NCBI RefSeq assembly: GCF_003790525.1
Contig: NZ_CP033635.1
DNA from: Escherichia coli
GTDB taxonomy: Bacteria; Pseudomonadota; Gammaproteobacteria; Enterobacterales; Enterobacteriaceae
Reading direction: 5' to 3' (one strand)
DNA length: 64,000 nt
In this document: in pieces, positions 2,221-29,106 of the stretch
Layout of the letters: each line of letters starts with the position of its first letter
How positions within the stretch are numbered: the stretch's first letter is position 1
The notes under the pieces: model-generated
Database searches by the model: none
Told to the model about the DNA's origin: nothing
What the model saw: the letters and a program-made list of their open reading frames with translations, nothing else
Translations under genes and position numbers: made by a program

Positions 2221-3758
2221 TGGCAATCACTAAATCAACTCCGGCACCATTAACCGGTGGGACGTTATGGTGCGTTACTATTGCATTGTCATTAGCGACG
2301 TTTATGCAAATGTTGGATTCCACTATTTCTAACGTCGCAATACCGACAATATCTGGCTTTCTGGGAGCATCAACAGACGAAGGCACCTGGGTTATCACTT
2401 CGTTTGGCGTAGCAAATGCCATTGCGATCCCTGTTACCGGCAGGCTGGCACAAAGAATAGGCGAATTAAGGTTATTTTTACTTTCAGTCACTTTTTTTTC
2501 GCTGTCTTCCTTAATGTGTAGTTTATCGACCAATCTTGATGTGCTGATATTTTTTAGAGTCGTTCAGGGATTAATGGCGGGGCCGTTAATTCCACTGTCA
2601 CAGAGTTTATTATTAAGGAATTATCCACCAGAAAAAAGAACATTTGCTCTGGCATTATGGTCTATGACCGTGATTATCGCGCCGATATGTGGGCCGATAT
2701 TGGGCGGTTATATTTGTGATAACTTTAGCTGGGGTTGGATATTTTTAATCAATGTCCCTATGGGGATTATCGTCCTGACATTATGCTTAACCTTACTTAA
2801 AGGAAGAGAAACCGAGACTTCACCGGTCAAAATGAATCTACCAGGACTGACCCTGTTAGTGCTCGGTGTTGGTGGCTTGCAAATTATGCTTGATAAAGGG
2901 CGCGATCTGGATTGGTTCAACTCGAGTACAATAATAATACTAACAGTAGTATCAGTTATTTCTCTGATCTCTTTAGTCATTTGGGAGTCGACCTCAGAGA
3001 ACCCGATTCTTGATCTCAGTTTGTTTAAGTCCCGTAATTTCACCATTGGTATTGTGAGTATCACATGCGCGTATTTATTTTACTCTGGAGCGATCGTCCT
3101 TATGCCGCAGTTACTCCAGGAAACGATGGGGTATAATGCGATATGGGCCGGGCTTGCTTATGCGCCCATCGGTATCATGCCGCTATTAATATCACCTTTG
3201 ATAGGACGTTATGGCAACAAAATAGATATGCGGTTGTTGGTGACATTTAGTTTTTTGATGTATGCGGTTTGCTATTACTGGCGTTCTGTGACATTTATGC
3301 CAACGATTGATTTTACAGGCATCATTTTGCCACAGTTTTTTCAGGGATTCGCCGTTGCCTGTTTCTTTTTACCCTTAACAACGATTTCGTTTTCAGGCTT
3401 GCCAGATAATAAATTTGCCAATGCCTCGAGTATGAGTAATTTTTTTCGCACCTTGTCAGGATCAGTTGGTACGTCGTTGACAATGACGCTGTGGGGACGC
3501 CGAGAATCATTACACCATAGTCAGTTGACAGCAACCATCGATCAATTTAACCCCGTGTTTAATTCATCGTCACAAATTATGGATAAATACTATGGTTCGC
3601 TTTCAGGAGTTCTTAATGAAATTAATAATGAAATAACCCAGCAGTCACTTTCTATTTCTGCAAATGAGATTTTCCGTATGGCGGCTATTGCTTTTATCTT
3701 ACTTACGGTTTTGGTTTGGTTTGCGAAACCGCCGTTTACAGCGAAAGGCGTTGGGTGA
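2220..3758 (+). CDS. emrY: MFS multidrug efflux pump EmrY (EmrB family, 14 TMS)
   Basis: The 512-aa hydrophobic ORF is translationally coupled to emrK (ATG overlaps the TAA). Confidence 0.95.
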   Translation: MAITKSTPAPLTGGTLWCVTIALSLATFMQMLDSTISNVAIPTISGFLGASTDEGTWVITSFGVANAIAIPVTGRLAQRIGELRLFLLSVTFFSLSSLMCSLSTNLDVLIFFRVVQGLMAGPLIPLSQSLLLRNYPPEKRTFALALWSMTVIIAPICGPILGGYICDNFSWGWIFLINVPMGIIVLTLCLTLLKGRETETSPVKMNLPGLTLLVLGVGGLQIMLDKGRDLDWFNSSTIIILTVVSVISLISLVIWESTSENPILDLSLFKSRNFTIGIVSITCAYLFYSGAIVLMPQLLQETMGYNAIWAGLAYAPIGIMPLLISPLIGRYGNKIDMRLLVTFSFLMYAVCYYWRSVTFMPTIDFTGIILPQFFQGFAVACFFLPLTTISFSGLPDNKFANASSMSNFFRTLSGSVGTSLTMTLWGRRESLHHSQLTATIDQFNPVFNSSSQIMDKYYGSLSGVLNEINNEITQQSLSISANEIFRMAAIAFILLTVLVWFAKPPFTAKGVG

Positions 3759-8108: not shown

Positions 8109-8678
8109 TTATATCTTCTTTATATCTAACACATCACCCTCCCATACTCGTTTAAATCTTGCTGCATTACTGGCTGTATATAATACCGTATGATGTATAT
8201 TTCTGTGCCCTAAATAATCTTGTATTAGTCTGGTGTCTAACCCTTGATTAGCTAAAGCATACCCACAACCATGCCTAAGCATGTGAGGATGAATATTAAT
8301 ATTCATATTGTGACTATATTTCTTACACATCTTATACACATATTGTCTCGAGATTTTATTTCCTTGACAAGAAAGAAATAAAGAGTCTTCAAAAGGTTTT
8401 TTTACTATGTTATCACGTAGTGCTAGCCATTTTTTTAATAACAGAACAGTTTCTTTTTGCAGGGGATGTACTGTGGATAATCCATTTTTTAAACGCTTGA
8501 TATATATTGCTGACTCTGAAAAGTCAATGTCGCTAATCTTTAGTGCAATAAGCTCGCTTACCCTAAGACCATGTACATATGCCATTTGTAACATGGCTTT
8601 ATCTCTAATTTCATTTTTTGAACCGTTGATGGCTTCAAAAAATAACAACCATTCACTATGAGTAATAAATTTGCGCAT
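8109..8678 (-). CDS. ipuB: FimB/FimE-family tyrosine recombinase (phase-switch recombinase)
   Basis: The 189-aa ORF has the motifs HGLRVSEL, HPHMLRH and GHRNIHHTVLYT, typical of fimbrial switch recombinases. It lies in a low-GC island next to dsdC, like the CFT073 ipu locus. The symbol is assigned by position only. Confidence 0.7.
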   Translation of the reverse strand: MRKFITHSEWLLFFEAINGSKNEIRDKAMLQMAYVHGLRVSELIALKISDIDFSESAIYIKRLKNGLSTVHPLQKETVLLLKKWLALRDNIVKKPFEDSLFLSCQGNKISRQYVYKMCKKYSHNMNINIHPHMLRHGCGYALANQGLDTRLIQDYLGHRNIHHTVLYTASNAARFKRVWEGDVLDIKKI

Positions 8679-9426
8679 AATATTATCGGTTATACTAATT
8701 AAGTTAAAAAATAAACTATAAATACCAGAGCCTGGTATTATTGCTTGTTTTTTATAAGCAAATAATGAGCTGGGGTTTAAATTATGCCACTAAATGGATA
8801 TTCATCAATACCCCGCCAGAGAGATAGTTGCCCAGCGGGCATAGATCATTATTAGTCAACCAATGAGCATAAATAAGCACAAGGAGGTGTGTATTGCGAA
8901 TAGTAATTCAATGACATGCTGGTGGTTTTTTTGTGGTGAAAATATTTGTACCTTTTTGTTTACGGATGAAAAATAAACAGTCATATTATTTTGGTTAATT
9001 GTTGTGTTAGTTTTAACACTCGGTGATGTTTTTTGTTATAGTGCATTAATTTTTAAATAAAAAAATTCATACATTCATGGATGTAATATATACAAGATAC
9101 AATGTTAATTTTAGATAAAATATTAATTGCATTGGATACTTTTTAAATATGCCGATGTTGAGCTTAATTTTATGAGGGAATACTATTTCGGGTTGTAGGA
9201 CTTTTTTATAATCATCTTATAGGGCTCTTTATATTTACAGGAGGGTTTTGAACGATAGTTACATAACGAAGGTTGTTTATATGCGTTTACAAGCGATTAA
9301 TTAGATTAGGTGAATTTTAATAAATTAATCTATAATCATACAGCAACTATATGAATTATATTATTGACTAAATGTAATTCTTTCATCATAGTTGACATGG
9401 TTATTTTATATAAATAGAGGTGATTT

Positions 9427-10056
9427 ATGCAAAACAGAAAATTTTTAACGCATCATGAAATTAATTTACTACTTCAATCTGTAAGACAAAAGAGTTGCTC
9501 TTCACGCGATGTTTGCATGATTTTATTGGCTTATTTTCATGGTCTGCGTGTTAGTGAGCTCTTATCTCTGCAGTTGTCGGATTTAGAACTAACTACAGAA
9601 AAAATATATATTCAACGGATAAAAAATGGATTCAGTACAGTCCATCCACTTCAAAAGGAAGAGGTGATTGCAATAACAAACTGGCTGAATGAAAGGAATT
9701 CATTAAATGTTAAACATTTCAATGATAACCCGTGGTTATTTGTTTCCCGAACAGGAAAACCATTATCGAGACAACGATTTTATAACATAGTTTCTGCTGC
9801 GGGTAAAAATGCAGGTTTAAATATTAAAGTTCATCCACATATGTTACGCCATGCATGTGGTTATTCACTAGCAGATAATGGTGTGGATACCCGTCTTATT
9901 CAGGACTATCTCGGGCATCGTAATATCAGGCATACGGTAATTTATACTGCTTCTAATTCAATGAGATTTGAAAAAATGTGGGGGAGAGGTGACGCAAAAA
10001 AGCAACATTTTGACCCAAAATGTAAACCCAATCTTTGTTTAGAAATTCTCGTATAG
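9427..10056 (+). CDS. ipuA: FimB/FimE-family tyrosine recombinase whose 3' end overlaps the left inverted repeat of the switch
   Basis: The 209-aa ORF has the same catalytic motifs (HGLRVSEL, HPHMLRHACG, GHRNIRHTVIYT). The 7-bp IRL at 10011-10017 lies inside its last 15 codons. Confidence 0.75.
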   Translation: MQNRKFLTHHEINLLLQSVRQKSCSSRDVCMILLAYFHGLRVSELLSLQLSDLELTTEKIYIQRIKNGFSTVHPLQKEEVIAITNWLNERNSLNVKHFNDNPWLFVSRTGKPLSRQRFYNIVSAAGKNAGLNIKVHPHMLRHACGYSLADNGVDTRLIQDYLGHRNIRHTVIYTASNSMRFEKMWGRGDAKKQHFDPKCKPNLCLEILV

Positions 10057-10285
10057 AAAAACATTTTTTTCTATAAAAAACATTAAATTTACTGATTTAG
10101 ATCAATGTGTGACGTCAATCTACACATAAAGAGGTAGGTTTGTCTTCTTTTTAATCTTTGGCGTATAAAGCCAAAATGTAAATAATAATCAAAATTATAT
10201 TCTGAATTAAAATAAATACGCAGGTTTTTTACCTGCGTTTTGTGCTATTTATAGTTAATTAAATTGATGTTGTCAAAATGGGTCA
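10011..10285. promoter_or_regulatory. ipuS: invertible DNA switch (ipuS-like): 261-bp segment flanked by 7-bp inverted repeats TGACCCA / TGGGTCA
   Basis: IRL is tgaccca at 10011-10017 and IRR is tgggtca at 10279-10285. Both are followed by (a/t)3-tgtaaacc. The element sits between a FimB-like recombinase gene and a LuxR regulator/autotransporter operon. Its size agrees with the ~260-bp element described in UPEC. Confidence 0.7.
10218..10242. terminator. symmetric (bidirectional-looking) hairpin terminator inside the invertible segment
   Basis: The hairpin acgcaggt-ttttt-acctgcgt has an A-rich run upstream and tttt downstream. Confidence 0.6.
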
Positions 10286-10373
10286 TTTTGTAAACCTGTG
10301 CCTCAAGGTTTGTCTCCCCCCGGTGTGCAAAGCAAAAGGAAATTGGGAAAGGGGATAACAGGAAATTGATTGC

Positions 10374-10994
10374 ATGGTTTTGATTACGACGACAAAAAAT
10401 ATTTTTATAATTCAAGCAATTAAGAGTATGCGTTGGCGGGGTTTTTCGTACGTGAAAGTCATCGCTGTGGACGACTATTCTTCTCTGATTCGTGATTTTG
10501 GCACATCTTGCTTTCGGGATGAGCAATCGTTGTTGTTACCTGTATTCCCTGATAATGATTCTACTACCTGTATACGCTCACTGTATTTCATTCACCAATG
10601 GCTAAAAAGCCAGCCTGTCAATATTCCGTGCCTGGCATGGGGGGATAATGGTGTAGTTAGTAATAAAGGCATACCTTCCATACCGTGGAAATTAACAGCA
10701 GAGCAATTTTGTTTCTATATAGATAAATTTATCAATGGCTGGAGGTGCAAAAAAAATATTCGCGCGAGTCATAAAGTTTCTTTTTTAGAACGACAATTAT
10801 CCCCGAGGGAGAAAAGTATCTTTATATATACCAAGGAAGGAAAAGATATTGCATGGATCTCTAACACCTTGGGTATATCCAGTAAGACTGTGTGGACGCA
10901 TCGTCGTAGAGCTATGGATAAACTCGGGGTAAAACGTTTACATCAATTTATAAATATTCCGCGTTCCCTTATTAGTGAAAATATTCAATTATAA
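10374..10994 (+). CDS. ipuR: LuxR-family transcriptional regulator (C-terminal HTH)
   Basis: The C-terminus LSPREKSIFIYTKEGKDIAWISNTLGISSKTVWTHRRRAMDKLGV is a LuxR/GerE HTH. The gene lies directly downstream of the switch and upstream of the autotransporter. The true start may be an internal Met. Confidence 0.75.
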   Translation: MVLITTTKNIFIIQAIKSMRWRGFSYVKVIAVDDYSSLIRDFGTSCFRDEQSLLLPVFPDNDSTTCIRSLYFIHQWLKSQPVNIPCLAWGDNGVVSNKGIPSIPWKLTAEQFCFYIDKFINGWRCKKNIRASHKVSFLERQLSPREKSIFIYTKEGKDIAWISNTLGISSKTVWTHRRRAMDKLGVKRLHQFINIPRSLISENIQL

Positions 10995-11018
10995 TGTACG
11001 TTCAAGAGTATTAGTGTT

Positions 11019-14000
11019 ATGAATAAGATATATAAAGTCATTTGGAACCATACAACCCAAAAATGGGATGTTGTTTCAGAATTGACGAGTTGTAGAAAAA
11101 AATGTAAATCAACTCGCTTAGGAATTGCTTTATCAGCAATGGTTCTGGGGGGCGCTATTGCAATTAATTGCAATAACGCAATGGCAGATGTCATATTGTC
11201 ACCAGACTGGCGTCCGGGTACGAATAACTCGGGTGTTGGGGCTGCAACAGTAAGTGGTAAAACCGAATACATCACTGGTCCAAATGTCGTCCAGTCTGGT
11301 GGGTCAGGTCTTATCTGGATGACTGTAGAACAGGCAATTTTAAATGGTTACACCACTGGAGATAATTTATCCGGATTGATTTACGTCAATACCGGAGAAA
11401 AAACAAAAACCATTACAGTGAAGGATGAGGTTACTGGCGCTTATCAAACACTTCAAGTGTTTGATACTGACTCTTTCTCACAACGCGATGCGGGGACTGG
11501 AGGAAATGAAACCATTCCTGGTTTTAGTGGCACTGCAGATTTTTTCAATGCGACACGTTTTGTAACAGCCAATAATGGCGGTACAGCTATTTTGGATGTG
11601 GGTTCACCAGCAATCGGTAATTTTTTTAAAAATACACAGCTTGCTGTAGCTGATGGAGAAGGTTCCTCTGTTGTATGGAACTCGGTCAATGATTTTTATT
11701 TTCAGCCTGGTGCAACCATGCAGGGGGGCGGCGTTACTCAAAAAATCATTGACTCAATGAAATATGCTGGAACAATTACTGATTGGGCGGGAAAAGTACA
11801 CCATATTAACTCTCTTGATGATTTAAAGCAATATAATCAATATTTGATAAAGTCACTAGAGGACAAAACGCTTTCTTATAAGCAGTATGATGCTGAATTT
11901 AATAAGGCCCTTATTGTCACCAAGCATAATTACAATGTGGATATGACCGCTGGGGGACGTATAGACTCAACTCCTTACAAAGAAAATGTAGGGCTGCTTG
12001 CTGTTCTCCATGCAACCAATAACGCACGAGCAATATTAGGTAAAACGGGTAAATTAACTGGAGTTCTTCCTGCCTATGGGAATGGAGGAGGGATCGTTGC
12101 AACTAATGGTGGGACCGGTGTTAATGAAGGGGTCATTGATGCCATTGGTACTGAAATGATTGCCTATCAAGACAGTACCATTGTTAACGATGGTACACTT
12201 TTTGTTTGGGATAATAATGATAAATATGCTCTCCAGGCAGAGGGGATGGTTGCCGGTAGTAATGGTTCTTCAGCCATTAATAATGGTGTTATTAATATTC
12301 GCCCATTTAAAAATGCTTTCGCTCCAGAGGGGATTAACACCGCAATTGTTGTTAGTAATGGGGGCATGGCAACAAATAAAGGCACAATAAATATTACTGC
12401 CGATGCATCAACTAATGATAATAATGGCAAAACACGAGGTGTAAATGTTGGAGCTGGAGGCTCTTTTATTAACTCGGCCTTCGGGAGCATCAATGTAGGT
12501 ATTGCGGAGGATAAAACTGCGACTCATTCGGCTGTGGGTTCTGTTGCGATTGAAGTACAAAATGGTGCAAACAAAGTCGTTAATGAAGGTACTATTTTTT
12601 TGGGCAGGGGGGCTCAGGGGAACTACGGAATCCTGGCAAAGGATGCCGGGAGTGTTGATGTGGTAAATAAAGGGACTATCACTATTGACGGTTATGACAG
12701 TGATGCACCTGCACTGAATGTTGGCATGCTGGCAAATAATAGCTCCGGGATGAAAAACTCCGGGATTATCAATGTTAATGGTCTGAACAGTACCGGGCTA
12801 CAGGTAATCAATGCAGGGCAATTAAATTCTGACGGTACGATAAATGTTGGCGGCGAGGGTATCAGTAGTGGTTTCCGTAACTATGGTGCCTGGGTGGAAG
12901 GTGCCAGAAGCAATGTTAATGTATCCGGAAAAATCAATCTTTCCGGTACTGGTGCTGTGGGGGTTTTTGCCAAAGATGGCGGCAGTCTTACCTTGTCAGG
13001 CAATGGTGCAGTGCTATTTGGCAGCAGCGATCAGATAGGCTTTTATGTCTATGGAAAGGACTCTGCCATTCATAATACCGGAAGCGGTGTTATGGATGTG
13101 TCCACTGAAAACTCAACATTATTCCGTATTGCCAGCGGTGCGACATTCCAGGGAACTGCAGATGCTTCTTCTGCACTTACGGCGTCTGGTAAGAACTCTT
13201 ATGCACTTATTGCCACGGGGAAATCGGATGGCGGTGTGGCCTCGACAGTAACGTCTGGAGGAATGACCATCAACCTGACGGGGGAGGGGGCTACAGCGAC
13301 TTTAATTGAAGGGGGAGCGCAGGGCACAATTGAAAGTAATGCCATTATCAATATGGATAATGCCAGTGCAATAGCCGGTATTGCGGATGGCAATGGCTAT
13401 GATATTTCCGGCAAACTCATTAATCCGAAGGACAAGACCACACTATTAACGGCGGGGGCTCAGTTAAGTTCCACCCAGGATAAAGTGACCGGGTATATCG
13501 CCCGTAATGGGGCCACTCTAAATAATACCGGTAATATCATCTTTACTGGAAAGAATACAGTGGGCGTCCGGGTTGAGGAGGGTGCTGTTGGTACCAACAG
13601 CGGAAATATTACAGTTCAGGATGGTGGTGTGGGACTAATTGCTAATGCCACACAAGATGTTACAACGATTAATAACTCGGGAAATCTCGTTCTCAAGGGG
13701 GGAGATAATGCTAACCGTACAACGGGTATAAAAGCATCTGGTACAACAACAACGGTTAATATGACCGCGGGTACTATATCTTTGCAGGGACAGGGGGCGA
13801 TTGGCGTTGAGGCCAGCAATAAAGGGACTGTTAACCTTGATGGCTCGGCAGTACCGAACTTTGCTTCTGACGGCTCTGGTATTACCGATCAGATTGCTTT
13901 TCGTATTATCGGAGATGGTGCAACCATTAAGACGAATATTGCACCGGGAACTCTGCTGGATGCCAGTGGGGAACGTTCTGTACTTTTCCGTATTGAAGAT

Positions 14001-17000
14001 GGGGCAAAACAGGCCGGCTCTTTGCTGATGAAAACCTCCGGGACAGGCAGCCGTGGTATCTGGGCCACAGGGAAAGGGAGCAATGTCCTGGCTGATGCTG
14101 GCAGTGATTTCCAGATCCTGGGCGCTCAGGCTCAGGGATTATATGTAACTGGTGGTGCGACAGCGACGCTGAAACAGGGGGCATCAGTTAACCTTGTAGG
14201 GGATGGCGCTGTTGTCGCGGAAGTTGACGGAAATGAATACGCTCTGGATGGCAGTATTACACAAACGAATACTGGCTCGGTTATTACCAATGAGGCAGAT
14301 ATCTCTTCGCCGCTGAATAATGCCAAGGGCTTTATTACGCGTAATCAGGGACTGTTGATTAACAGCGGCAACATTGATTTCACTACCGGTACAGATAATA
14401 TCGGCGTCTGGGTTGATAATGGTCGTTTTGAAAATACAGGAAGCCGTATAGCGGTCAATGGCGTTGCATTATTTGTTGAAGGTGAACACGCTCAGATTAC
14501 CAGCACGGGAGGGGATATCGTCGCTGTGGATGGTGAGGCTGCCATTAAGCTGGGGGCGGGCGCGTCACTGAACCTGGCAGGGAGTGGCCTGGGAACGATC
14601 GAAGGTCAGAAAAATGCGCATGGCATCCTGCTGGATACAGGGGCTGTGGGGCTGGTTATTGATGGTGCGAAAATCAATGTTAATGCTGCAGGTGCGGTCG
14701 GTCACGGGATTGAGAACCGTGCAGAAATTGAAGGCATTCAGTTAACCAATACGACTGAAATTAATGTGGCTGATGGCATTGGTGTGCGAACTTCTGCTTC
14801 TCTGGCCAAGACCAACAGCGGCACTATTAATGTAGACGGCAGTGGAATTGCACTGGCGTTCCAGAAAGCTGACGGAAGTGAAACCGATAATAACCTGGAT
14901 ATGTCTGACTCCGGCGGATTAGTCATTAATCTGAAAGGCACGGGCGGCACGGGTATTTTCGCCAACACTAAAGATGGTGCTGTCGTGAAGAGTGGTGCAA
15001 GTGTCAATGTTACACAGGCCGATGGCGGTTCCGCTCTGGTGGTTAACAATGCGGCCAGTGAAGTGGTTCAGAGCGGTAATCTCATCTCTGCTTCTCTGAG
15101 TCATGCCGTAGTGGATGCTTCAAAAGCACAGTCCTTTACCAATAAAGGTCAGATTAAAGCTGCGTCCGCCACCGGGACTGCAATGGCGTTTGATGACGCC
15201 GTGAATACCACCGTACTGAATGACAGCGGTGCTGAAATTCAGGGGGTTGTGGCTCTGAACGGCGGTGATAACACATTCACCAATAAAGGCAGTATTACCG
15301 GAACCGTCAGTGCAAAAGAGGGTAACAATACATTTTTATTTGATGATGGCAGCATACTGACAGGAGAAGTGGCTGCAGGAAATGGCAATAACAATGTAAC
15401 GCTCAATGGTAAGGCTCATGTTGATAAGGTTACTGCCGGTACCGGGAAGAACACCTTCACCATTAAAGGCGAAGGGGCAACCTGGAACCTGCTGGATGGC
15501 GGGCAGGGAGATTCTGATTCCCTGATTTTTGATAACGCCATTCATACGCTGGATTCTGCTGTAAAACTACGGAATTTTGAACATGTCGGGCTGAAGAACA
15601 GTTCGCTTGTCACTCTGAAGGAAGCTCTTGTGCTGACCGATGGGGGGACCGGCCCGGGTTCCGTCGATATTGAATCGGGCAGCGAACTGGCCATTATTCC
15701 CGCAGTTGCAGGCAACTTTACCTTTGATCCACTGTTAACAGGCAAAGGAACACTGTCTGCCCGTCTTGATGCCGACACATCTGCTTTTGAATTCAGCCAT
15801 AACGTCGGGGATCAATTTGCCGGAACTCTGAAGCTGGGTACCAGTAGCTTTGCTCTGGAAGGGCTGAATACGAGCGGGTTAACCCATGCAATGCTGATGT
15901 CTGAAACCGGGAATATCACAACGGTTGGCTCCGGTGTTCAGCAGATTGGCGGTCTTGGGTTCAATGGCGGAACGCTGATTTTTGGTTCCGTTATGCCGGG
16001 CGATACCATTGCCAGCAACAGTATTGAAACCTCTGCTGCAGGTACGCTGGATATCCGGGGGAAAGGCACAATTCAGGTCACCATGCCAGATGAAGTGATT
16101 AATGATATTCCGGCTGTTGATACCCGTAAGAATTTGCTGGAGCAGGATGATGCGCAGACCCTGGTCACACTGGTGAATGCAGCGGGTACCGTCACCGGTA
16201 CTGGCGGGCAACTGCAACTGGTGGATGAAAACGGGCAGGCTATTTCTCACAGTCAGACGTTTGATGTCACTCAGGGCGGTGAAGTTGTAGCTCAGGGAAA
16301 TTATGACTATAAGCTGCTGGGAAGCTCCGACGGTGTTAAAGGTGACGGACTGTACATAGGCTATGGGCTGAAGTCGCTGGATTTACAGGGAACCGGTGAT
16401 AAAGCGCTGGTGCTGACACCGAGAGCGAATGCCCAGGGACTGCAGACAGATCTTGGTGCACAGTTAACGGGGGCAGGGGATCTGGCCATCGAAGCTGCGG
16501 GGCAGGTTGTCACACTGTCTAACGGCGGTAATAACTACACCGGGGATACGCTGGTGCGCAGCGGCACACTGCAGATGGCAAATGATAATGTGCTTGGCGC
16601 TACAGGTAGCCTGAACGTTGCCAGCAATGCCGTCTTCAGAACAGACGGATACAGCCAGACGGTGGGTGCACTGCAGACAGAAACGGGAGCGCACATTCAG
16701 CTTGATAGCGGTAGTGTACTCACGGTCAGCGGCACGCAGCGTCAGCCGGGCGATGATAATGGTGGCATCATTGAAAACAATGTGCTGACCGGAGACGGTA
16801 CGCTGGCTGTCACGGGCAGCAATCTGACGGTACATGGCACCAATATCGGGTTCACCGGTAATGTCAGCCTTACCCGGGGTTCGCTGGTTGAAATGAACGG
16901 CGCACAGGGGCTGGGAAGCCAGGGCTCCATCAGCTTTGAAAGCCTTAATGATCGCCTGGCGATTGATATCGCCGACGGTAGCGGAGTCAGCAGTAACCTG

Positions 17001-18932
17001 AGTAAATCGCTTTCCGGAAAAGGTTCAGTGGGCATACTGAACACCACTGATCTGACACTTTCCGGAGATAACCGTAATTTCAGCGGTGAATTCCGTGTGC
17101 AGAAAGATGCTGCTCTGCGGGCTTCAGATGAAAAACACCTGGGCACCGGGCTGATTGACAGTGATGGTGTCACCTGGCTTACCGCCAGTGGAAACTGGTT
17201 ACTGAAGAATGATATTACTGGCTCCGGCGCTCTGGTGAAACAGGGGGCGGGTAATCTGATCATTAATCATGAGCTGACTTATACCGGTGATACCACGGTT
17301 GAGAATGGCGTTCTGATTGTCGGTGATGATTCAGTCACCCGTGCCGCTGGCGCGACGTTGTCAGGATCCAAAAACATTCATGTTCTTAATGGCGGCACAC
17401 TGAGTGGGCTGGGGACCGTTTCGGGTCAGGTTAATAACCAGGGAACACTGGCATCACTGAATGCTCTCTCAGGTTATGAAACGGCAGAGGCGGGCAATTT
17501 TACCGTTGGCTCACTGACCAATACCGGCGTCATTCGTCTGGCCGGTGGTAAGACAGGAAATACCCTGACCGTAAATGGCGATTACACTGGTGGCGGTACG
17601 TTAATTATCAATACCGTGCTGGGGGATGATACTTCTGCCACTGACAAACTGATTGTCACGGGTAACACCTCCGGTGATACCGGCGTGGTGGTGAATAATG
17701 TCCGGGGCCAGGGGGCTCAGACCGCTGACGGCATTGAGATTGTGCATGTCGGTGGGCAGTCTGACGGTAACTTCAGACTGCAGAACCGTGCGGTGGCAGG
17801 GGCATGGGAATATTTCCTGCATAAAGGTAATGCGGGTGGTACTGACGGTAACTGGTATCTGCGTTCTGAATTGCCGCCAGAACCACAACCGCAGCCGCAG
17901 CCACAACCGCAGCCACAGCCACACCCCACGCCGGATAAACCTGTACAGAAGGTCTATCGTCCGGAAGCGGGCTCTTATATTGCGAACATAGCGGCAGCCA
18001 ACACGCTGTTCAACATCAGAATGCACGATCGTGAGGGGGAAACTTACTATACCGATGTGTTTACTGGTGAGAAGAAAGCAACAAGTATGTGGATGCGTCA
18101 TATCGGCGGTCATAATCGCTGGAAGGACAGCAGTTCACAGCTGAATACGCAAAGTAACCGTTATGTTGTGCAACTGGGTGGCAGCATTGCGCAATGGACT
18201 GACGGTCAGGACCGTCTGCAACTGGGGATTATGGCCGGTTATGGAAATGAGAAGAGTTCCACGACATCCTCGCTTTCGGGATATAAATCTAAAGGTGCGA
18301 TCAATGGATACAGCACCGGTTTATACGGAACGTGGCAGCAGAATGACGGTAATGACAACGGGGCTTATGTCGATACCTGGATCCAGTACGGATGGTTTAA
18401 TAATACCGTTAATGGTGAAAAACTGGCTGCGGAGTCCTGGAAATCCCGTGGATTTACCGGTTCAGTGGAAGCGGGTTATACCTTTAAAGCCGGCGAATTT
18501 ACCGGTAGCCAGGGTAGTCACTATGACTGGTATATTCAGCCGCAGTCCCAGATCACGTGGATGAATGTAAGAGCCAGTGAGCATACGGAGAAGAATGGCA
18601 CGAAAGTTCAGCTCAGCGGAGACGGTAATATCCAGAGTCGTCTGGGCGTCAGAACTTACCTGAAAGGTAAGAGTGCGTCTGATGATAATAAGGCGCATCA
18701 GTTCGAGCCATTTGTGGAAGTTAACTGGATCCATAATACACGGAGCTGGGGTGTCAAAATGGATAATACGGCACTCAGTCAGGACGGAGCTACAAATATT
18801 GCTGAAGTCAAAACGGGTGTTCAGGGTAAATTGTCAGATAACCTGAATGTCTGGGGCAATGTTGGTGTTCAGGCTGGCGATAAAGGGTACAGTGATGCCC
18901 AGGCAATGCTGGGTATTAAATATATATTCTAA
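11019..18932 (+). CDS. upaE: giant AIDA-I-type (type Va) autotransporter adhesin
   Basis: The 2637-aa ORF starts with an ESPR-type extended signal peptide (MNKIYKVIWNHTTQKWDVVSELT). A long Gly/Asn/Thr-rich beta-helical passenger follows, then a PQ linker and a C-terminal beta-barrel ending in KYIF. The symbol follows the ipuR-linked locus of CFT073. Confidence 0.85.
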   Translation: MNKIYKVIWNHTTQKWDVVSELTSCRKKCKSTRLGIALSAMVLGGAIAINCNNAMADVILSPDWRPGTNNSGVGAATVSGKTEYITGPNVVQSGGSGLIWMTVEQAILNGYTTGDNLSGLIYVNTGEKTKTITVKDEVTGAYQTLQVFDTDSFSQRDAGTGGNETIPGFSGTADFFNATRFVTANNGGTAILDVGSPAIGNFFKNTQLAVADGEGSSVVWNSVNDFYFQPGATMQGGGVTQKIIDSMKYAGTITDWAGKVHHINSLDDLKQYNQYLIKSLEDKTLSYKQYDAEFNKALIVTKHNYNVDMTAGGRIDSTPYKENVGLLAVLHATNNARAILGKTGKLTGVLPAYGNGGGIVATNGGTGVNEGVIDAIGTEMIAYQDSTIVNDGTLFVWDNNDKYALQAEGMVAGSNGSSAINNGVINIRPFKNAFAPEGINTAIVVSNGGMATNKGTINITADASTNDNNGKTRGVNVGAGGSFINSAFGSINVGIAEDKTATHSAVGSVAIEVQNGANKVVNEGTIFLGRGAQGNYGILAKDAGSVDVVNKGTITIDGYDSDAPALNVGMLANNSSGMKNSGIINVNGLNSTGLQVINAGQLNSDGTINVGGEGISSGFRNYGAWVEGARSNVNVSGKINLSGTGAVGVFAKDGGSLTLSGNGAVLFGSSDQIGFYVYGKDSAIHNTGSGVMDVSTENSTLFRIASGATFQGTADASSALTASGKNSYALIATGKSDGGVASTVTSGGMTINLTGEGATATLIEGGAQGTIESNAIINMDNASAIAGIADGNGYDISGKLINPKDKTTLLTAGAQLSSTQDKVTGYIARNGATLNNTGNIIFTGKNTVGVRVEEGAVGTNSGNITVQDGGVGLIANATQDVTTINNSGNLVLKGGDNANRTTGIKASGTTTTVNMTAGTISLQGQGAIGVEASNKGTVNLDGSAVPNFASDGSGITDQIAFRIIGDGATIKTNIAPGTLLDASGERSVLFRIEDGAKQAGSLLMKTSGTGSRGIWATGKGSNVLADAGSDFQILGAQAQGLYVTGGATATLKQGASVNLVGDGAVVAEVDGNEYALDGSITQTNTGSVITNEADISSPLNNAKGFITRNQGLLINSGNIDFTTGTDNIGVWVDNGRFENTGSRIAVNGVALFVEGEHAQITSTGGDIVAVDGEAAIKLGAGASLNLAGSGLGTIEGQKNAHGILLDTGAVGLVIDGAKINVNAAGAVGHGIENRAEIEGIQLTNTTEINVADGIGVRTSASLAKTNSGTINVDGSGIALAFQKADGSETDNNLDMSDSGGLVINLKGTGGTGIFANTKDGAVVKSGASVNVTQADGGSALVVNNAASEVVQSGNLISASLSHAVVDASKAQSFTNKGQIKAASATGTAMAFDDAVNTTVLNDSGAEIQGVVALNGGDNTFTNKGSITGTVSAKEGNNTFLFDDGSILTGEVAAGNGNNNVTLNGKAHVDKVTAGTGKNTFTIKGEGATWNLLDGGQGDSDSLIFDNAIHTLDSAVKLRNFEHVGLKNSSLVTLKEALVLTDGGTGPGSVDIESGSELAIIPAVAGNFTFDPLLTGKGTLSARLDADTSAFEFSHNVGDQFAGTLKLGTSSFALEGLNTSGLTHAMLMSETGNITTVGSGVQQIGGLGFNGGTLIFGSVMPGDTIASNSIETSAAGTLDIRGKGTIQVTMPDEVINDIPAVDTRKNLLEQDDAQTLVTLVNAAGTVTGTGGQLQLVDENGQAISHSQTFDVTQGGEVVAQGNYDYKLLGSSDGVKGDGLYIGYGLKSLDLQGTGDKALVLTPRANAQGLQTDLGAQLTGAGDLAIEAAGQVVTLSNGGNNYTGDTLVRSGTLQMANDNVLGATGSLNVASNAVFRTDGYSQTVGALQTETGAHIQLDSGSVLTVSGTQRQPGDDNGGIIENNVLTGDGTLAVTGSNLTVHGTNIGFTGNVSLTRGSLVEMNGAQGLGSQGSISFESLNDRLAIDIADGSGVSSNLSKSLSGKGSVGILNTTDLTLSGDNRNFSGEFRVQKDAALRASDEKHLGTGLIDSDGVTWLTASGNWLLKNDITGSGALVKQGAGNLIINHELTYTGDTTVENGVLIVGDDSVTRAAGATLSGSKNIHVLNGGTLSGLGTVSGQVNNQGTLASLNALSGYETAEAGNFTVGSLTNTGVIRLAGGKTGNTLTVNGDYTGGGTLIINTVLGDDTSATDKLIVTGNTSGDTGVVVNNVRGQGAQTADGIEIVHVGGQSDGNFRLQNRAVAGAWEYFLHKGNAGGTDGNWYLRSELPPEPQPQPQPQPQPQPHPTPDKPVQKVYRPEAGSYIANIAAANTLFNIRMHDREGETYYTDVFTGEKKATSMWMRHIGGHNRWKDSSSQLNTQSNRYVVQLGGSIAQWTDGQDRLQLGIMAGYGNEKSSTTSSLSGYKSKGAINGYSTGLYGTWQQNDGNDNGAYVDTWIQYGWFNNTVNGEKLAAESWKSRGFTGSVEAGYTFKAGEFTGSQGSHYDWYIQPQSQITWMNVRASEHTEKNGTKVQLSGDGNIQSRLGVRTYLKGKSASDDNKAHQFEPFVEVNWIHNTRSWGVKMDNTALSQDGATNIAEVKTGVQGKLSDNLNVWGNVGVQAGDKGYSDAQAMLGIKYIF
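17874..17933 (+). repeat. CCNCAR dinucleotide-codon repeat encoding the (PQ)n linker PPEPQPQPQPQPQPQPHPTP
   Basis: The repeat ccacaaccgcagccgcagccacaaccgcagccacagcc is read directly. It lies between passenger and barrel, as in AIDA-like autotransporters. Confidence 0.9.
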
Positions 18933-19966: not shown

Positions 19967-20115
19967 ATCTTAATTATTATTATGTTGATTTATATGTAGT
20001 TTATTTTTGATTTTTTGTTTTTGTACCCGTTTTGTGCCCGTTTTATTCGATTCCCAATTTAAACTTCGATTCTAGAAAGGTGAGTAGGGGAGGTTATCAT
20101 TTCATGTATCATTAT

Positions 20116-20159
20116 TGTAGACACAGAATAATTACTCGCCTATCCTCACTGTAGACACA
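20116..20159. promoter_or_regulatory. direct repeats TGTAGACACA(G/C)AATA x2 upstream of the toxin-antitoxin operon (candidate operator)
   Basis: tgtagacaca occurs at 20116-20125 and 20150-20159, 25-70 nt upstream of the mazE-like start. Confidence 0.45.
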
Positions 20160-20183
20160 CAATAGATACAGGAGTTAACCCAC

Positions 20184-20432
20184 ATGCGCACACAGGTTGT
20201 ATTGCAAAAATGGGGTAATAGCATTGCCCTTCGACTAACGGGAAACCTTAAAACCGTTCCGGGGTTTTCAGTGGGTGATATCGTCAACGTTGAAATTAGT
20301 GAAAAGGGGCTTTTTGTAGAAAAGCCTGCACGCCGTCGCCTGAGTGAAGCCGAATTACTCGCCGGGATAACGCCAGTTACAGCGCACGCGGACGAAATTG
20401 CCACCCCATTCAATGAGGAGGTTGATTACTGA
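20184..20432 (+). CDS. MazE/ChpS-like antitoxin (AbrB/SpoVT fold)
   Basis: The 82-aa ORF contains the motif LQKWGNSIALRL, characteristic of MazE-type antitoxins. It has an acidic C-terminus and a TGATG overlap with the toxin gene. Confidence 0.8.
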   Translation: MRTQVVLQKWGNSIALRLTGNLKTVPGFSVGDIVNVEISEKGLFVEKPARRRLSEAELLAGITPVTAHADEIATPFNEEVDY

Positions 20433-20776
20433 TGTTTGTACCTAAGCGTGGTGATATTTGCTGGCTGGATTTTGAGCCGCAGAAAGGAAAAGAGAGCGGA
20501 AAGTATCGCCCGGCACTCATACTATCCCATGAGCAATATAACCGACTCACCGGGCTTGTCATATGCTGCCCCATAAGTACGAGCATACGAAATGCTCCCA
20601 CAGAAGTTCCGGTAACAAATCTGGACGCCCCCAGCGTGGTAGCAACCACACTCATTCAAACCCTTGACTGGCGTCAGCGGAAAGCGCGCTTAATCACAGA
20701 GGCAGAAGATGGGGTATTTAATGATGTGCTTGAAAGAGTCATTACCCTGATTGGTGGAGAGCATCTGCTTAAGTAA
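20432..20776 (+). CDS. MazF/PemK-family endoribonuclease toxin
   Basis: The 114-aa ORF contains PKRGDICWLDFEPQKGKESGKYRPALILS and VICCPISTS, the MazF/ChpBK pattern. Confidence 0.8.
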   Translation: MFVPKRGDICWLDFEPQKGKESGKYRPALILSHEQYNRLTGLVICCPISTSIRNAPTEVPVTNLDAPSVVATTLIQTLDWRQRKARLITEAEDGVFNDVLERVITLIGGEHLLK

Positions 20777-20779
20777 AAG

Positions 20780-20797
20780 GAGGGCTGAGAAGCCCTC
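20780..20797. terminator. hairpin between the convergent mazF-like and capsid-like genes
   Basis: The hairpin gagggct-gaga-agccctc lies 4 nt after the mazF-like stop. Confidence 0.45.
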
Positions 20798-20819
20798 AAC
20801 GTTACCAGAAATTTCCTTG

Positions 20820-22091
20820 CTATTCTTTCCAGTCAATCCCATCCAGTAAGCACCCTGCCTCATATTGCCCAACAACCCAGTCAAGATTGCAGGACTCATA
20901 GAAAGCGAGGCGATTATACTGTGGCTCGTTTTTTACCAGACCACGAACGGAGCCGCGTTGCCAGTACAGGCACAGATTGGCAAGAGGTGTGATCAGCACA
21001 GCATTGTCCGGGAAAAATGGAACGGTCACAGCCGGAAGATTCCCCAGCACGGGCTTTTTAATGATTTCCTCGTTAAGCAAAATTTCCTGATTCATCTGCG
21101 ATGGATCAAGACGGTTTATCAAAGGCCATTGTTTACGGACCAGAGTATTGTGACTGCATACGGCCACAATGCCTTCCTGCCACTGTTCATCAATCATGGA
21201 TTGCCAGGCATCCAGAACAAGTGCATCTATTGTATGGTGTGTACCGCGTGTATTGCTTGTCGGCGATGAAACAGAAAGACCGCTGATAACCCTTCCCGCT
21301 GCTTCGTTTCGAAACTTCTGCAACCATCCGACGCCGCAATCGTCACGGCCCGGATATGTTTCAGGATCAGATTGATCGGCATAGTGTGTGCCGTTAAAAC
21401 CAATCTGAATTAAATCCAGCCATTTCCGGCGTTCAAAAGCGGCACGGGCGCTTCCTTCAAGACCATTTGCGGACGCGTGAGCATCGACATTGTCGTAGCT
21501 CAACGCAAAATCAAAATTAACCTGCTCGCAGCGGTAGCCTCTTGAAACCAGTGAATGCGCCTGTAGTGGCGAACGGCGCTCGTGAGGTGGCGATGTACGT
21601 GCCAACGGCCGGGAAGCGTCTACCAGCACAACCTGACCTGATATATCCGTAACAGGCACGGGGGTTATTTCAGCAAGGAAATTTGCCTGCCATCCACTGG
21701 CAAGCGTTGCACTCTGGCGGGGAACGGGTTCAACTTCTGACGAATAGCGCGCAGTATCACCGGAAAAGTGCAAATCCTTCGGATGCTTTCCGGTTATCGA
21801 CTCGATAGCGCAATTGAAAACCATCTGAGACTGTTGATTTCGTTGTGATACAACATAATCAGCAGTGCAATTATAACACTCAATGCCGTCGTTATTACCC
21901 CCACCGCTTGCAGTATGCAGGGTGTGAAGCTCAAGCTCACGCTCCAGTTTTTGATATTCATTGTCCAGCGCGCGACGCGTCTCATCGCTTATGCTTGCTG
22001 TGTTTGCTTTCAGGCGATTCCGGGACATTAACTCCCTGAGTCGGCTCACTATATCAGCGCCGTGCAAATGTGAAATATTCAGACCGCCCAT
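20820..22091 (-). CDS. P2 GpN-family major capsid protein homolog with a ~95-aa N-terminal extension (possible fused scaffold domain)
   Basis: The protein is collinear with recalled P2 GpN. CEQVNFDF aligns with CDQINFDF, GWLQKFRNEA with GWLQKYRNEA, GNLPAVTVPFFPDNAVLITPLANL with GNLPAVRVPYFPADAMLITKLENL, and YESCNLDWVVGQYEAGCL with YESMNIDYVVEDYAAGCL. The start was chosen at the TAATG overlap with the upstream gene (MGGLNISH) rather than the ORF-track start at 22232. Confidence 0.8.
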   Translation of the reverse strand: MGGLNISHLHGADIVSRLRELMSRNRLKANTASISDETRRALDNEYQKLERELELHTLHTASGGGNNDGIECYNCTADYVVSQRNQQSQMVFNCAIESITGKHPKDLHFSGDTARYSSEVEPVPRQSATLASGWQANFLAEITPVPVTDISGQVVLVDASRPLARTSPPHERRSPLQAHSLVSRGYRCEQVNFDFALSYDNVDAHASANGLEGSARAAFERRKWLDLIQIGFNGTHYADQSDPETYPGRDDCGVGWLQKFRNEAAGRVISGLSVSSPTSNTRGTHHTIDALVLDAWQSMIDEQWQEGIVAVCSHNTLVRKQWPLINRLDPSQMNQEILLNEEIIKKPVLGNLPAVTVPFFPDNAVLITPLANLCLYWQRGSVRGLVKNEPQYNRLAFYESCNLDWVVGQYEAGCLLDGIDWKE

Positions 22092-22801
22092 TACTGCCAC
22101 CCCCGGCAGAGTTCTCTGCCCTCCGCAAGGTCGCGCATTTTTTCTGGATTCTGTCGCGCCGCGCTCCATTGTACAGGTGAAGGGGCGTTCCTGATTGCGT
22201 GGCTTACCGAATCCGGCAGTTTCTCCGGGCAATAACGAAGCGGATTGGAGGCATCGCTCTCAATATCGTTAATCCGGCCGCGAATCAGCCCGACACTTTC
22301 AACAATATCTGCCATTTTCAGTGTTTCACATATTTTCTTTTCTGCGTTATACAGCGGCTGGCCAAGCAGCTCACATAAACCACGAATCAATAGCAGAGCA
22401 GGGGTCAGCTCGTTAATCAGTCCGGGAAGTGCTTTTGCAAATATCTCTGCCCGCAACTTATTATCAATGCTTTGGTAAGCACAGCCAGCCTCTGCCGCGT
22501 TATAACGACACTCCAGTAACCTGATGCGCGCCTCATCATGCAATACCCGCAGACGCTCAAGATTTTCTCGCGCCACACCCGCCTGAATGCATAATTTTGC
22601 GGAGGCTTCCGTTTTTGCGCCCAGCGCAGACAGGATTGAGTTCTGCCAGTCACGTTCGAGAGACTCCAGCTCCCCTTTCGTCTGTTCGATAGTCGCTTCC
22701 AGATTGGTGATTAATGATTCCTGTTCGCTGAGTTTTGCCATGGCCGTATCAAACTGTGCTTTACATGCCTGATGCCTGGCGCTTGCCTGAGTTATATCCA
22801 T
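22091..22801 (-). CDS. coiled-coil protein, possibly Sid/Psu-like capsid size-determination or decoration factor
   Basis: The 236-aa ORF is predicted helical, with a heptad-rich N-terminus (AKLSEQESLITNLEATIEQTKGELESLERDW). Its size and position (after Ogr/Delta, before the capsid gene) resemble the P4 sid/psu module. An AGGAG RBS is present. Homology is not verified. Confidence 0.45.
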   Translation of the reverse strand: MDITQASARHQACKAQFDTAMAKLSEQESLITNLEATIEQTKGELESLERDWQNSILSALGAKTEASAKLCIQAGVARENLERLRVLHDEARIRLLECRYNAAEAGCAYQSIDNKLRAEIFAKALPGLINELTPALLLIRGLCELLGQPLYNAEKKICETLKMADIVESVGLIRGRINDIESDASNPLRYCPEKLPDSVSHAIRNAPSPVQWSAARQNPEKMRDLAEGRELCRGWQ

Positions 22802-22879
22802 TGTTTGCTCCTGTAATACATTTTTTACTTACGCCCATTTTTTCCATATTGCGTAATACATTCCAGCCGATTTTGTTCT

Positions 22880-22910
22880 CGTAATACGCTCACAATACTG
22901 TTGTATTACG
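22880..22910. promoter_or_regulatory. inverted repeat CGTAATAC-N15-GTATTACG in the divergent promoter region (candidate operator)
   Basis: The repeat is read directly. It lies between the divergent 236-aa gene and the RHH gene. The same 8-mer recurs 8 times between 22813 and 23889. Confidence 0.5.
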
Positions 22911-22965
22911 CTTTCTTATATCGCGGGTGTTAAATCCCGGTATAAGCAATCAGGGAGGCAACACG

Positions 22966-23199
22966 ATGAAAAAACAAAAGAAAATGCGATACGTATTACG
23001 CTGTATTCGTATCCCGCACGAAATCGACCATAAAATAAATCAGATATGTAAGGACAGAGAGATGAACTACTCCCAGTGCGTCAGAATGTTTATCTGTCAG
23101 GGAATTAAGGCCGGGGAAACGCAGGAAGAAGACCGCAACGGGCGCAATGTAGCGGGAGATGTGTGGGCCTGGGCAAATGACCAGAACTACACGACGTAA
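22966..23199 (+). CDS. small ribbon-helix-helix-like DNA-binding protein (hypothetical)
   Basis: The 77-aa ORF starts at the internal ATG preceded by a GGGAGG RBS. The pattern YVLRCIRIPHEIDHKINQICKDREMNYSQCVRMFICQGI fits a strand-helix-helix fold. The assignment is tentative. Confidence 0.45.
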   Translation: MKKQKKMRYVLRCIRIPHEIDHKINQICKDREMNYSQCVRMFICQGIKAGETQEEDRNGRNVAGDVWAWANDQNYTT

Positions 23200-23249
23200 T
23201 ACAGAAATAACGTAGCCGGTTACACTCGCTGGCTGCGTTATACAAATCA

Positions 23250-23432
23250 CTATGAAGTTTTCAACTTCCTGCGCTTAGTGATGCGTACAAACGACTCAAG
23301 CGTACAAAAACAAGCCCCACACTCAATATTACTGCACTGGTAATACGTTTTGTAGATGTTTTGTTCGTGCTCTTCCAACGAACGACTACGGGTTCGGGCT
23401 GAAGCGCCACAGGCCGGGCAAGGGAAAGACAT
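23250..23432 (-). CDS. Ogr/Delta-family zinc-finger late-gene transcriptional activator
   Basis: The 60-aa ORF has CPACG...CSNIECGACF, four Cys with the Ogr/Delta spacing. A GAGGAG RBS is present. Confidence 0.8.
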   Translation of the reverse strand: MSFPCPACGASARTRSRSLEEHEQNIYKTYYQCSNIECGACFCTLESFVRITKRRKLKTS

Positions 23433-23793
23433 ATCACGCTCCTCTTACTGGTGTGAAATTTGACCTATTATATCTCCTGCCGCCCCCTCTGGCTGTATCA
23501 AATAAACCCGCAGCAGTCGCCGCGTATTACGGACGGACGCACCGTTCCCATGCTCACTCGTCACATTCCCCGTATCAGTTCTCTCTTACCGTAAGAACGG
23601 CTCTGGCTGGCGATAAAACTAACCCGGTCGGGCATTCCCGCAGTCTTTAGAGAAAATGTAATTTACCCCCTGAAACGTGGGCTGTTCCCCCGTCACCTGC
23701 GCGCGAAAAACTCACCGTTTTTTGTGCACGCACGAAATCGCCCTCCGGGTGCGCCAGTACTGGGCCGGATGGGCAAAAAGTTACTCTAAAAAA

Positions 23794-23820
23794 TTGTGCA
23801 AATTTGTGCACTTTTGTGCA
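23794..23820. repeat. three helically phased direct repeats of TTGTGCA (exact 10-bp period)
   Basis: ttgtgca occurs at 23794, 23804 and 23814 in non-coding DNA between the iteron field and ogr. Confidence 0.85.
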
Positions 23821-24046
23821 GATGAACAATAGCGTGAAAAAGAGTGCTTTTGAGAGATTTTTTATGGCAACTGCGCCGCGTGTATTACGTTTTTTACCAT
23901 CCCCGCCGCGCATGTACATACTTCATTTTTCTGCCAGACAACAGGGCAACTCCCCGTGACTGACAGCCCCAAAAAATCAATGATTGATGTTGCATTTTTG
24001 TTAAAGGTTAGACCAGTTGTTTTAGGGCTCTGCCTCATAATCCGGT

Positions 24047-24360: not shown

Positions 24361-24611
24361 CCCAAACTTTAGCGCGACCCTTTAAAATGTTAATTAAACT
24401 CACTTACTCTGTATCTCTCTCGTTAACTCTCTGTTATTGAAATGTATCTCTCCACTGTTTCACTCTTTCTGATAATCAGGGGAAGCAAAAAATTGATGGC
24501 GGCACTACTGCAATATGGCCACCATTGCATTGCTGTTACCGTTGGTTCTGGCCAACAAAAAAGGTCAGCGGGAAACTGACCTCTTTTGCTGTGAATGCGG
24601 CGTTCTGCGGG

Positions 24612-25616: not shown

Positions 25617-25618
25617 GT

Positions 25619-28288: not shown

Positions 28289-28336
28289 ATATAAAACTCC
28301 ACCCCACTGCACCTTTTGCCGTGGGGTTTTTATTAA

Positions 28337-29104: not shown

Positions 29105-29106
29105 CG

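Follow-up and report, generated by a model that had tools for sequence, protein, structure and literature searches.

The ipuS promoter-inversion switch of an Escherichia coli genome and a hairpin predicted to terminate transcription in both of its orientations

The invertible element ipuS was defined in the uropathogenic Escherichia coli (UPEC) strain CFT073, in which the distal of its two inverted repeats lies inside the recombinase gene ipuA (Battaglioli et al. 2018, mBio, PMC6083910). The element controls the adhesin UpaE and affects kidney colonization by UPEC (PMC6083910). Here we describe the corresponding region of another E. coli genome (RefSeq assembly GCF_003790525.1, contig NZ_CP033635.1), of which a stretch of 64,000 nucleotides, hereafter called the window, was analysed; all coordinates are positions in the window. 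We identify the region as the promoter-inversion switch ipuS known from extraintestinal pathogenic E. coli, here residing in its OFF orientation, and assign a probability of about 0.9 to this explanation as a whole, with one step of the proposed mechanism (transcription termination at a hairpin inside the element) graded separately below. The switch has already been characterized, and its recognition from the DNA sequence alone, hereafter the original prediction, was a correct rediscovery. The only unreported detail of the switch is a predicted two-way transcription stop signal.

Both published studies of ipuS mapped its 7-bp repeats by Sanger sequencing, and the breakpoints were sequenced again and confirmed in the second of them (PMC6083910; Russell et al. 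2019, mSphere, PMC6458436). Full-length IpuA is encoded in the OFF orientation, whereas in the ON orientation the protein loses 11 carboxy-terminal residues and its new last residue is changed, a substitution that is given as K-L in the main text and as K-to-F in a figure legend (PMC6083910). Both forms of IpuA invert the switch, and the ON state raises adherence and kidney colonization (PMC6083910). All five Fim-type recombinases can invert ipuS, with IpuB and FimE performing best in the OFF-to-ON direction and IpuA in the ON-to-OFF direction, and switching increases ipuR about 1600-fold and upaE about 33-fold (PMC6458436). A transcription start site was found only in the ON state and lies at a place within full-length ipuA, and the putative sigma-70 promoter matches the consensus at 4/6 positions in each hexamer; OFF cells yielded neither an ipuR product by 5'RACE nor a lacZ signal (PMC6083910).

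Two other switches are useful for comparison. Like ipuS, fimS of E. coli is a promoter-bearing element of about 300 bp that is inverted by recombinases of the same family, and into which a recombinase gene reads. The two are also alike in carrying a terminator for the recombinase gene, which in the case of ipuS is predicted. However, the left repeat of fimS starts about 48 bp past the fimE stop codon, whereas the left repeat of ipuS lies inside ipuA, and the FimE protein is therefore unchanged by inversion. As stated in a passage of PMC9993118 that cites Joyce & Dorman 2002 and Hinde et al. 2005, the fimE terminator in fimS is detachable, Rho-dependent and active in one orientation only, and our scan of fimS revealed no intrinsic-terminator-like hairpin. 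The ipuS hairpin, in contrast, is intrinsic in form, symmetric and predicted to act in both orientations, and we do not class it with the Rho-dependent terminator of the fimS type. Relative to fimS, the location of a recombination site inside a gene is thus both published and recurrent, whereas the symmetric hairpin of intrinsic type has not been reported and is confined to ipuS of E. coli. The hyxS (FimX) switch of UPEC is described in passages of the two ipuS papers (PMC6083910, PMC6458436) as a third switch of the same recombinase network, and it also controls a LuxR-type regulator, but its repeats are 16 bp in length rather than 7 bp and it lies outside the window.

Identity and orientation of the element

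The locus examined here matches that of CFT073 (PMC6083910, PMC6458436) in its gene order (ipuB, ipuA, ipuS, ipuR and upaE, adjoining dsdCXA), in its 7-bp repeats, in the presence of a PacI site and in its long and short forms of IpuA (Table 1). Over 275 bp, ipuS shares 98.2% identity with its CFT073 counterpart, from which it differs at five bases, and it is 100% identical to the element in other E. coli strains; IpuA carries the differences R20K and R187I relative to CFT073. Exactly 261 bp separate the 7-bp cores in both strains, the published figure being '260 bp'. Over positions 9300-11100 the window shows 100% identity to many RefSeq E. coli chromosomes, whose annotation lists IpuA as a tyrosine-type DNA invertase, followed by a helix-turn-helix regulator and the phase-variable autotransporter adhesin UpaE. 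The same order of genes is annotated by RefSeq in genomes identical to the window, and the names IpuA, IpuB and UpaE are carried by one genome that is identical at the locus, that of strain XH992. Overall, ipuS is present in 236 of 5426 complete E. coli genomes.

The 7-bp match alone is not significant, given that 1150 perfect inverted pairs of 7-mers occur in the window at spacings of 200-400 bp. The significance of the switch instead rests on its identity with the CFT073 element, on its quasi-palindromic recombination sites, on the ON form of IpuA obtained by simulation and on naturally inverted contigs. A larger quasi-palindrome is centred on each 7-bp repeat, which is the arrangement expected if a tyrosine recombinase binds two half-sites there, and this half-site role is presumed from what is known of fimS (PMC6083910, PMC6458436). 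The extended left site occurs only once in the window. The left inverted repeat (IRL) resides 13 codons ahead of the ipuA stop codon, and the right inverted repeat (IRR) 88 bp ahead of ipuR. The Phage_integrase domain assigned to IpuA by Pfam spans residues 5-178, and it therefore lies upstream of the variable tail.

In silico inversion of the element, conducted by reverse complementing positions 10018-10278, shortens IpuA from 209 residues ending in FDPKCKPNLCLEILV to 198 residues reading KKQHFDPF before the stop codon. Of the two published versions of the terminal substitution, the sequence gives K to F. Because the simulated inversion yields exactly the published ON form of IpuA (PMC6083910), the window is in the OFF orientation. 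Orientation can be read from sequence by the same rule, with an IpuA of 209 residues denoting OFF and an IpuA of 198 residues ending in PF denoting ON.

Most of what the original prediction had claimed for the switch was borne out by these comparisons. It had named TGACCCA and TGGGTCA as repeats flanking 261 bp between the ipuA-like gene and the ipuR-upaE operon, and all of these coordinates were confirmed, as was its placement of the left repeat within the last 15 codons of the recombinase gene (codons 195-197 of 209). The proposed identity with the CFT073 element agrees with the alignment over 275 bp. Its statement that inversion rewrites the carboxy terminus of the recombinase was upheld by the simulation, but this had already been published, and the suggested comparison of the activities of the two carboxy-terminal variants had likewise been answered, since both forms of IpuA are active (PMC6083910). 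The orientation, which had been left undecided, is now resolved as OFF.

Naturally occurring ON forms were recovered by an exact-sequence look-up of IpuA in public data. The 198-residue protein was found in seven contigs for the window allele and in six contigs for the CFT073 allele, compared with at least 1000 public contigs for each 209-residue form. When ON contigs were compared with the simulated ON form over the equivalent of positions 9900-10400, contig L113, which carries the same allele as the window, matched at 501 of 501 positions, contigs L111 and L112 matched at 499 of 501 and contig L116 matched at 493 of 501, with all mismatches being point substitutions. Three further contigs stop inside or just past the switch, which is what assembly of reads from a mixed population would be expected to produce. 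Inversion therefore occurs in nature at exactly these repeats, and the breakpoints are right because the natural ON contigs equal the simulated inversion.

The ON orientation is nonetheless rare among assemblies. A 117-nt query for the ON junction, evaluated at full coverage, was absent from all 236 locus-carrying genomes among the 5426 complete E. coli genomes queried, whereas the OFF junction was fully covered in 236 of 236. A search of metagenome contigs likewise found no exact ON junction, and a degenerate pattern that accommodates both states retrieved 23 contigs, every one of them OFF. This rarity fits the ON-to-OFF bias of IpuA (PMC6458436). What the census adds to earlier work is that assemblies are almost always OFF and that rare ON assemblies do exist.

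Together with the published experiments, these observations fit a mechanism in which Fim-type recombinases exchange strands within the 7-bp cores and thereby flip the 261-bp interior. The enzymes are IpuA and IpuB, which are encoded nearby, and FimE, FimX and (weakly) FimB, which are encoded elsewhere in the genome. A weak promoter of the sigma-70 type located beside IRL, termed P(ipuS), would point back into ipuA in the OFF orientation, whereas after inversion it would reside beside IRR and transcribe ipuR-upaE, such that the UpaE adhesin is made. Since IRL lies within ipuA, inversion also swaps the tail of the recombinase. The inversion and the tail swap are shown, by the literature or by the checks reported here, and the promoter flip is supported by the literature.

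The function of the internal promoter rests on published 5'RACE and reverse transcription quantitative PCR data (PMC6083910, PMC6458436). A standard promoter scan, which demands at least 9/12 matches, did not recover the published P(ipuS). With the threshold relaxed to 8/12, the simulated ON form yielded TTTATA-16-TATACG and TAGAAA-17-GAGAAT (hexamers separated by the indicated number of nucleotides), each with 4/6 plus 4/6 matches and located at the expected place. Promoter-like sites on the plus strand of the OFF element (10158-10186 and 10228-10255) were rejected, since they are not conserved in CFT073 and the scan's total number of hits was below chance. The A/T palindrome that overlaps the candidate hexamers would form only a weak hairpin as RNA (-6.7 to -8.8 kcal/mol), and might serve as an operator to which, for instance, the LuxR-type regulator IpuR binds. 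The lengths of its runs vary between alleles.

Table 1. Positions of ipuS, its sequence features and the associated genes in the window
Feature	Coordinates	Strand	Description
ipuB	8109-8678	-	Open reading frame (ORF), 189 aa; Fim-type tyrosine recombinase; Pfam Phage_integrase, E 7e-46; annotated IpuB in XH992
ipuA	9427-10056	+	ORF, 209 aa, full-length OFF-state form; Fim-type tyrosine recombinase; Pfam Phage_integrase, E 1e-49
Left recombination site	10005-10023		Quasi-palindrome ACATTTTG-ACC-CAAAATGT around IRL; two presumed recombinase half-sites
IRL	10011-10017		7-bp core TGACCCA; inside ipuA codons 195-197; published breakpoint; break site in natural ON contigs
ipuS invertible interior	10018-10278		261 bp, 27% G+C, OFF orientation; reverse complement matches contig L113 (501/501)
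Candidate P(ipuS) hexamers	10045-10077	-	OFF: leftward, antisense into ipuA; after inversion: toward ipuR
A/T palindrome	10052-10075		Perfect 10-bp TATAGAAAAA-CATT-TTTTTCTATA; overlaps ipuA stop codon and candidate P(ipuS) hexamers
Pseudo half-site	10171-10182		CCAAAATGTAAA; internal direct copy of the IRL inner flank (10015-10026)
Symmetric hairpin	10218-10238		ACGCAGGT-TTTTT-ACCTGCGT; G+C-rich; predicted bidirectional intrinsic terminator
PacI site	10255-10262		TTAATTAA; single and asymmetric in ipuS; used in orientation assays (PMC6083910, PMC6458436)
Right recombination site	10269-10295		Quasi-palindrome GTTGTCAAAATG-GGT-CATTTTGTAAAC around IRR
IRR	10279-10285		7-bp core TGGGTCA; within the quasi-palindromic right site
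ipuR	10374-10994	+	ORF, 206 codons; LuxR-type regulator; Pfam GerE, E 5e-12; first in switched operon
upaE	11019-18932	+	ORF, 2637 aa; phase-variable autotransporter adhesin; Pfam ESPR, PATR and AC_1 (type V secretion domains)

Two rearranged copies of the element were also encountered. An ON-oriented copy on contig L117 (positions 1431-1545; Logan SRR34861436) has a 153-bp deletion between two copies of the 12-nt sequence TTTACATTTTGG, which are direct repeats in the ON orientation. The endpoints of this deletion correspond to the inner flank of IRL (window positions 10015-10026) and to the internal look-alike half-site (10171-10182), and the promoter end of the element is lost. The contig is short and has an Illumina adaptor at its end, and the deletion may be an artefact. 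In E. coli TUM1586 (NZ_CP135712.1; positions 1700-2420 of locus L005), ipuS is interrupted by a copy of IS200C whose tnpA gene is on the minus strand. The insertion is located at the equivalent of about 10217/10218, which is the 5' foot of the hairpin described below, and it expands the spacing of the repeats to about 970 bp.

A symmetric hairpin inside the invertible element

The interior of ipuS contains a hairpin whose 8-bp stem includes five G-C pairs, and which is preceded by an A-run (10210-10217; AAATAAAT) and followed by a T-run (10239-10242; TTTG). Its folding energy is -14.8 kcal/mol on the plus strand and -13.0 kcal/mol on the minus strand (z-scores of -4.40 and -4.34), and 0/20000 dinucleotide-preserving shuffles of the 261-bp element gave a stem of 8 bp or longer containing five or more G-C pairs. 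The flanking A-run and T-run are counted as parts of the predicted terminator. A consensus scan, with a criterion of at least five T residues in eight, scored the hairpin as terminator-like on both strands, although the T-tracts that pass (UUUGUGCU on the plus strand and AUUUAUUUUA on the minus strand) are imperfect. Five genome alleles share an invariant stem, as do 20 of the 21 metagenome contigs spanning the hairpin, and the flanking bases vary. The hairpin is a real feature beyond chance with a sensible predicted role, and it merits an annotation line rather than a study of its own.

Searches with Rfam produced no family matches in or near ipuS, the hairpin included. The possibility that the hairpin represents a repeated element was rejected, since its arms are unrepeated in the window except for one isolated 8-mer at 47763. 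The word 'terminator' appears in neither of the two ipuS papers (PMC6083910, PMC6458436). In the original prediction, positions 10218-10242 were called a strong and nearly symmetric hairpin terminator. The hairpin and its terminator-like form on both strands have held up, whereas its function in termination is a prediction only.

In the OFF orientation the hairpin is located 161 nt past the ipuA stop codon and before IRR, whereas in the simulated ON form it is located 34 nt past the new stop codon, with the relocated promoter about 130 bp downstream of it. In either orientation the hairpin thus separates ipuA from ipuR and is upstream of the flipped promoter. Because the hairpin is symmetric, and so presents a stem-loop with a T-rich tail whichever way the element is turned, it is predicted to act in both orientations. 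Transcripts of ipuA would terminate there in both phases, and ipuR-upaE would be shielded from read-through. If ipuA transcripts are ended in both phases, then expression of ipuR-upaE would be set only by the direction of P(ipuS). We infer this role for the hairpin, as an intrinsic terminator that works in either orientation and insulates the operon, at roughly even odds, and this grade applies to this step alone. The published lack of an ipuR 5'RACE product and of a lacZ signal in OFF cells (PMC6083910) counts in favour of this step. The proposal makes a testable prediction, which is that the symmetric terminator prevents read-through from ipuA into ipuR-upaE in both phases.

Several points weigh against the reading favoured here. 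Termination at the hairpin is predicted from sequence, and the U-tract is short on the plus strand (UUUG) and interrupted on the minus strand (AUUUAUUUUA). Metagenome allele L102 carries a single uncompensated change in the stem (G-to-T), and ON contigs L111 and L112 carry a single uncompensated mid-stem change at the equivalent of 10222 (A-to-G on the window strand). The E. coli alleles are 97-100% identical, and hence too similar for covariation to be evaluated. The number of terminators across the region is not by itself enriched (2 found versus 1.0 +/- 1.2 expected), and weakness of the ipuA promoter could equally account for silence in the OFF state. Moreover, the Escherichia whittamii homologue discussed below, which has the same 7-bp cores, has no G+C-rich symmetric hairpin, and among 20 other candidate elements of the Fim type that were examined, most lack a hairpin like that of ipuS, with only the Serratia-type elements having an unrelated symmetric one at a similar relative position. 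With regard to inversion itself, none was observed in the strain of the window, and the OFF orientation was found in 236/236 complete genomes and 23/23 metagenome contigs.

The mid-stem change in L111 and L112 (GCA_052497125.1, SRR30349935) corresponds to an A.C mismatch in the ON ipuA transcript, and both contigs may derive from one strain.

A possible, if doubtful, alternative holds that the hairpin is an ordinary ipuA terminator that happens to fall in the invertible segment and contributes nothing to how the switch operates. Its symmetry would then be the usual A-tract, stem and T-tract symmetry of many intrinsic terminators, and symmetric terminators of bidirectional appearance are common. 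The lack of the hairpin in the E. whittamii homologue and in most related elements also indicates that it is not a conserved part of such switches. However, given that the hairpin stands between ipuA and ipuR in both orientations, insulation would be automatic if it terminates transcription at all. In addition, an unrelated symmetric hairpin resides at a similar relative position in Serratia-type switches, where one compensatory change is seen.

It is improbable that the palindrome is instead a protein-binding or DNA-structural element, such as an accessory-factor site that shapes the synapse. An A-run, a G+C-rich stem and a T-run within DNA of 27% G+C constitute the classic signature of an intrinsic terminator, here on both strands, and the palindrome differs in form from the known sites of IHF, Lrp and Fis, which are A/T-rich. 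In favour of such a role, a perfect 8-bp palindrome could serve as a dimer site, and accessory proteins that bend DNA within the element are required for Fim-type inversion, which for fimS are IHF, Lrp and, according to PMC9993118, Fis.

Finally, the absence of the ON junction from the complete genomes (0/236) and metagenome contigs (0/23) might suggest that the repeats are a relic and that the element is effectively locked OFF in the strain of the window, but this is very improbable, given that the two repeats, the two flanking sites and the two recombinase genes all remain intact, that the window allele occurs base for base in the ON form (L113, 501/501), and that assemblies show the majority orientation while IpuA favours ON-to-OFF inversion (PMC6458436).

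The preferred reading, a functional inversion switch with a terminator that might act in both orientations, can be extended further. Under this extension, which we regard as unlikely, ipuS would be a two-way transcription router arranged around an orientation-independent terminator, with OFF-state P(ipuS) producing an antisense transcript across the 3' end of ipuA. If true, antisense transcription would lower IpuA in the OFF state, whereas the ON state would free ipuA, whose transcript would have a short 3' untranslated region ending 34 nt downstream at the hairpin. Both the level and the isoform of the recombinase would depend on orientation, which would make the system an intrinsic-terminator counterpart of the 'orientational control' of fimE, and such regulation could explain the strong OFF bias in assemblies.

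Along the antisense strand from OFF-state P(ipuS), the terminator scan found no terminator for about 1.3 kb, after which there is a weak hairpin at 8721-8739 (AATACCAG-AGC-CTGGTATT). This second hairpin is symmetric and terminator-like on both strands, and is flanked by a promoter-like site and the start codon of ipuB. That transcription from P(ipuS) in the OFF state might continue into ipuB, with this hairpin in its way, is retained here as a speculation of low probability.

Related Fim-type switches in other genera

A scan with IpuA of one genome per bacterial species identified 80 Fim-type recombinase loci. The closest relative, from E. whittamii (L007; 64% identity), has TGACCCA and TGGGTCA cores 262 bp apart, with the left core inside the recombinase gene and a LuxR-type gene downstream. 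The left repeat also resides within the recombinase ORF at loci from Erwinia (L026), Serratia (L029 and L079), Citrobacter (L080) and Xenorhabdus (L020 and L052), whereas it overlaps the stop codon at three other Serratia loci (L048, L065 and L073) and at a locus labelled Pseudomonas lundensis (L037). The loci from E. whittamii, Erwinia and Citrobacter, together with L029 and L079 from Serratia, resemble ipuS in that the left repeat is positioned 20-72 nt ahead of the stop codon and encodes an (F/L)(D/G)P motif, but none of them has the ipuS hairpin. Most of these relatives precede fimbrial operons, whereas ipuS precedes an autotransporter operon.

Simulated inversion produced a short form ending in (D/G)PF followed by a stop codon at all six loci of the IpuA-like group. 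The long tails, in contrast, vary freely from 2 to 23 residues and also differ in sequence. We read this as an indication that both reading-frame outcomes may be dictated by the recombinase-binding DNA and that the long tail may be dispensable, in keeping with the published finding that both forms of IpuA are active (PMC6083910). Because the in-gene left repeat and the short form ending in PF recur whereas the long tails are not conserved, the tail swap appears to be a by-product of the position of the site rather than a selected feature. This recurrence in several genera is an addition to the published description of ipuS.

Other palindromic structures are present in these elements. In E. whittamii, the right site lies inside a palindrome (L007 positions 3104-3144; ATCTGTTGTTGTCAAAATG-GGT-CATTTTGACAACAACAGAT) with 19 paired positions per arm, far longer than that of E. 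coli ipuS. The Serratia-type loci (L037, L048, L065 and L073) carry a different symmetric hairpin, AAAACACCAT-CC-ATGGTGTTTT, at approximately positions 223-246 of an element of about 314 bp. Its position is similar to that of the ipuS hairpin, and one compensatory change, T-A to A-T, distinguishes L037 from L048.

An insertion elsewhere in the window

Relative to XH992, the window carries a 12.7-kb insertion at positions 19967-32634, which abuts a gene for tRNA-Arg(CCT) (32636-32710, minus strand) and is associated with a duplication of about 20 bp. The insertion encodes a P4-type integrase beside the tRNA gene, a second integrase, a Toprim primase-like protein and a P2-family capsid-like protein, and it looks like a phage satellite or a cryptic prophage at argW. 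Positions 29507-29701 within it give Rfam matches to C4 antisense RNA and isrK.

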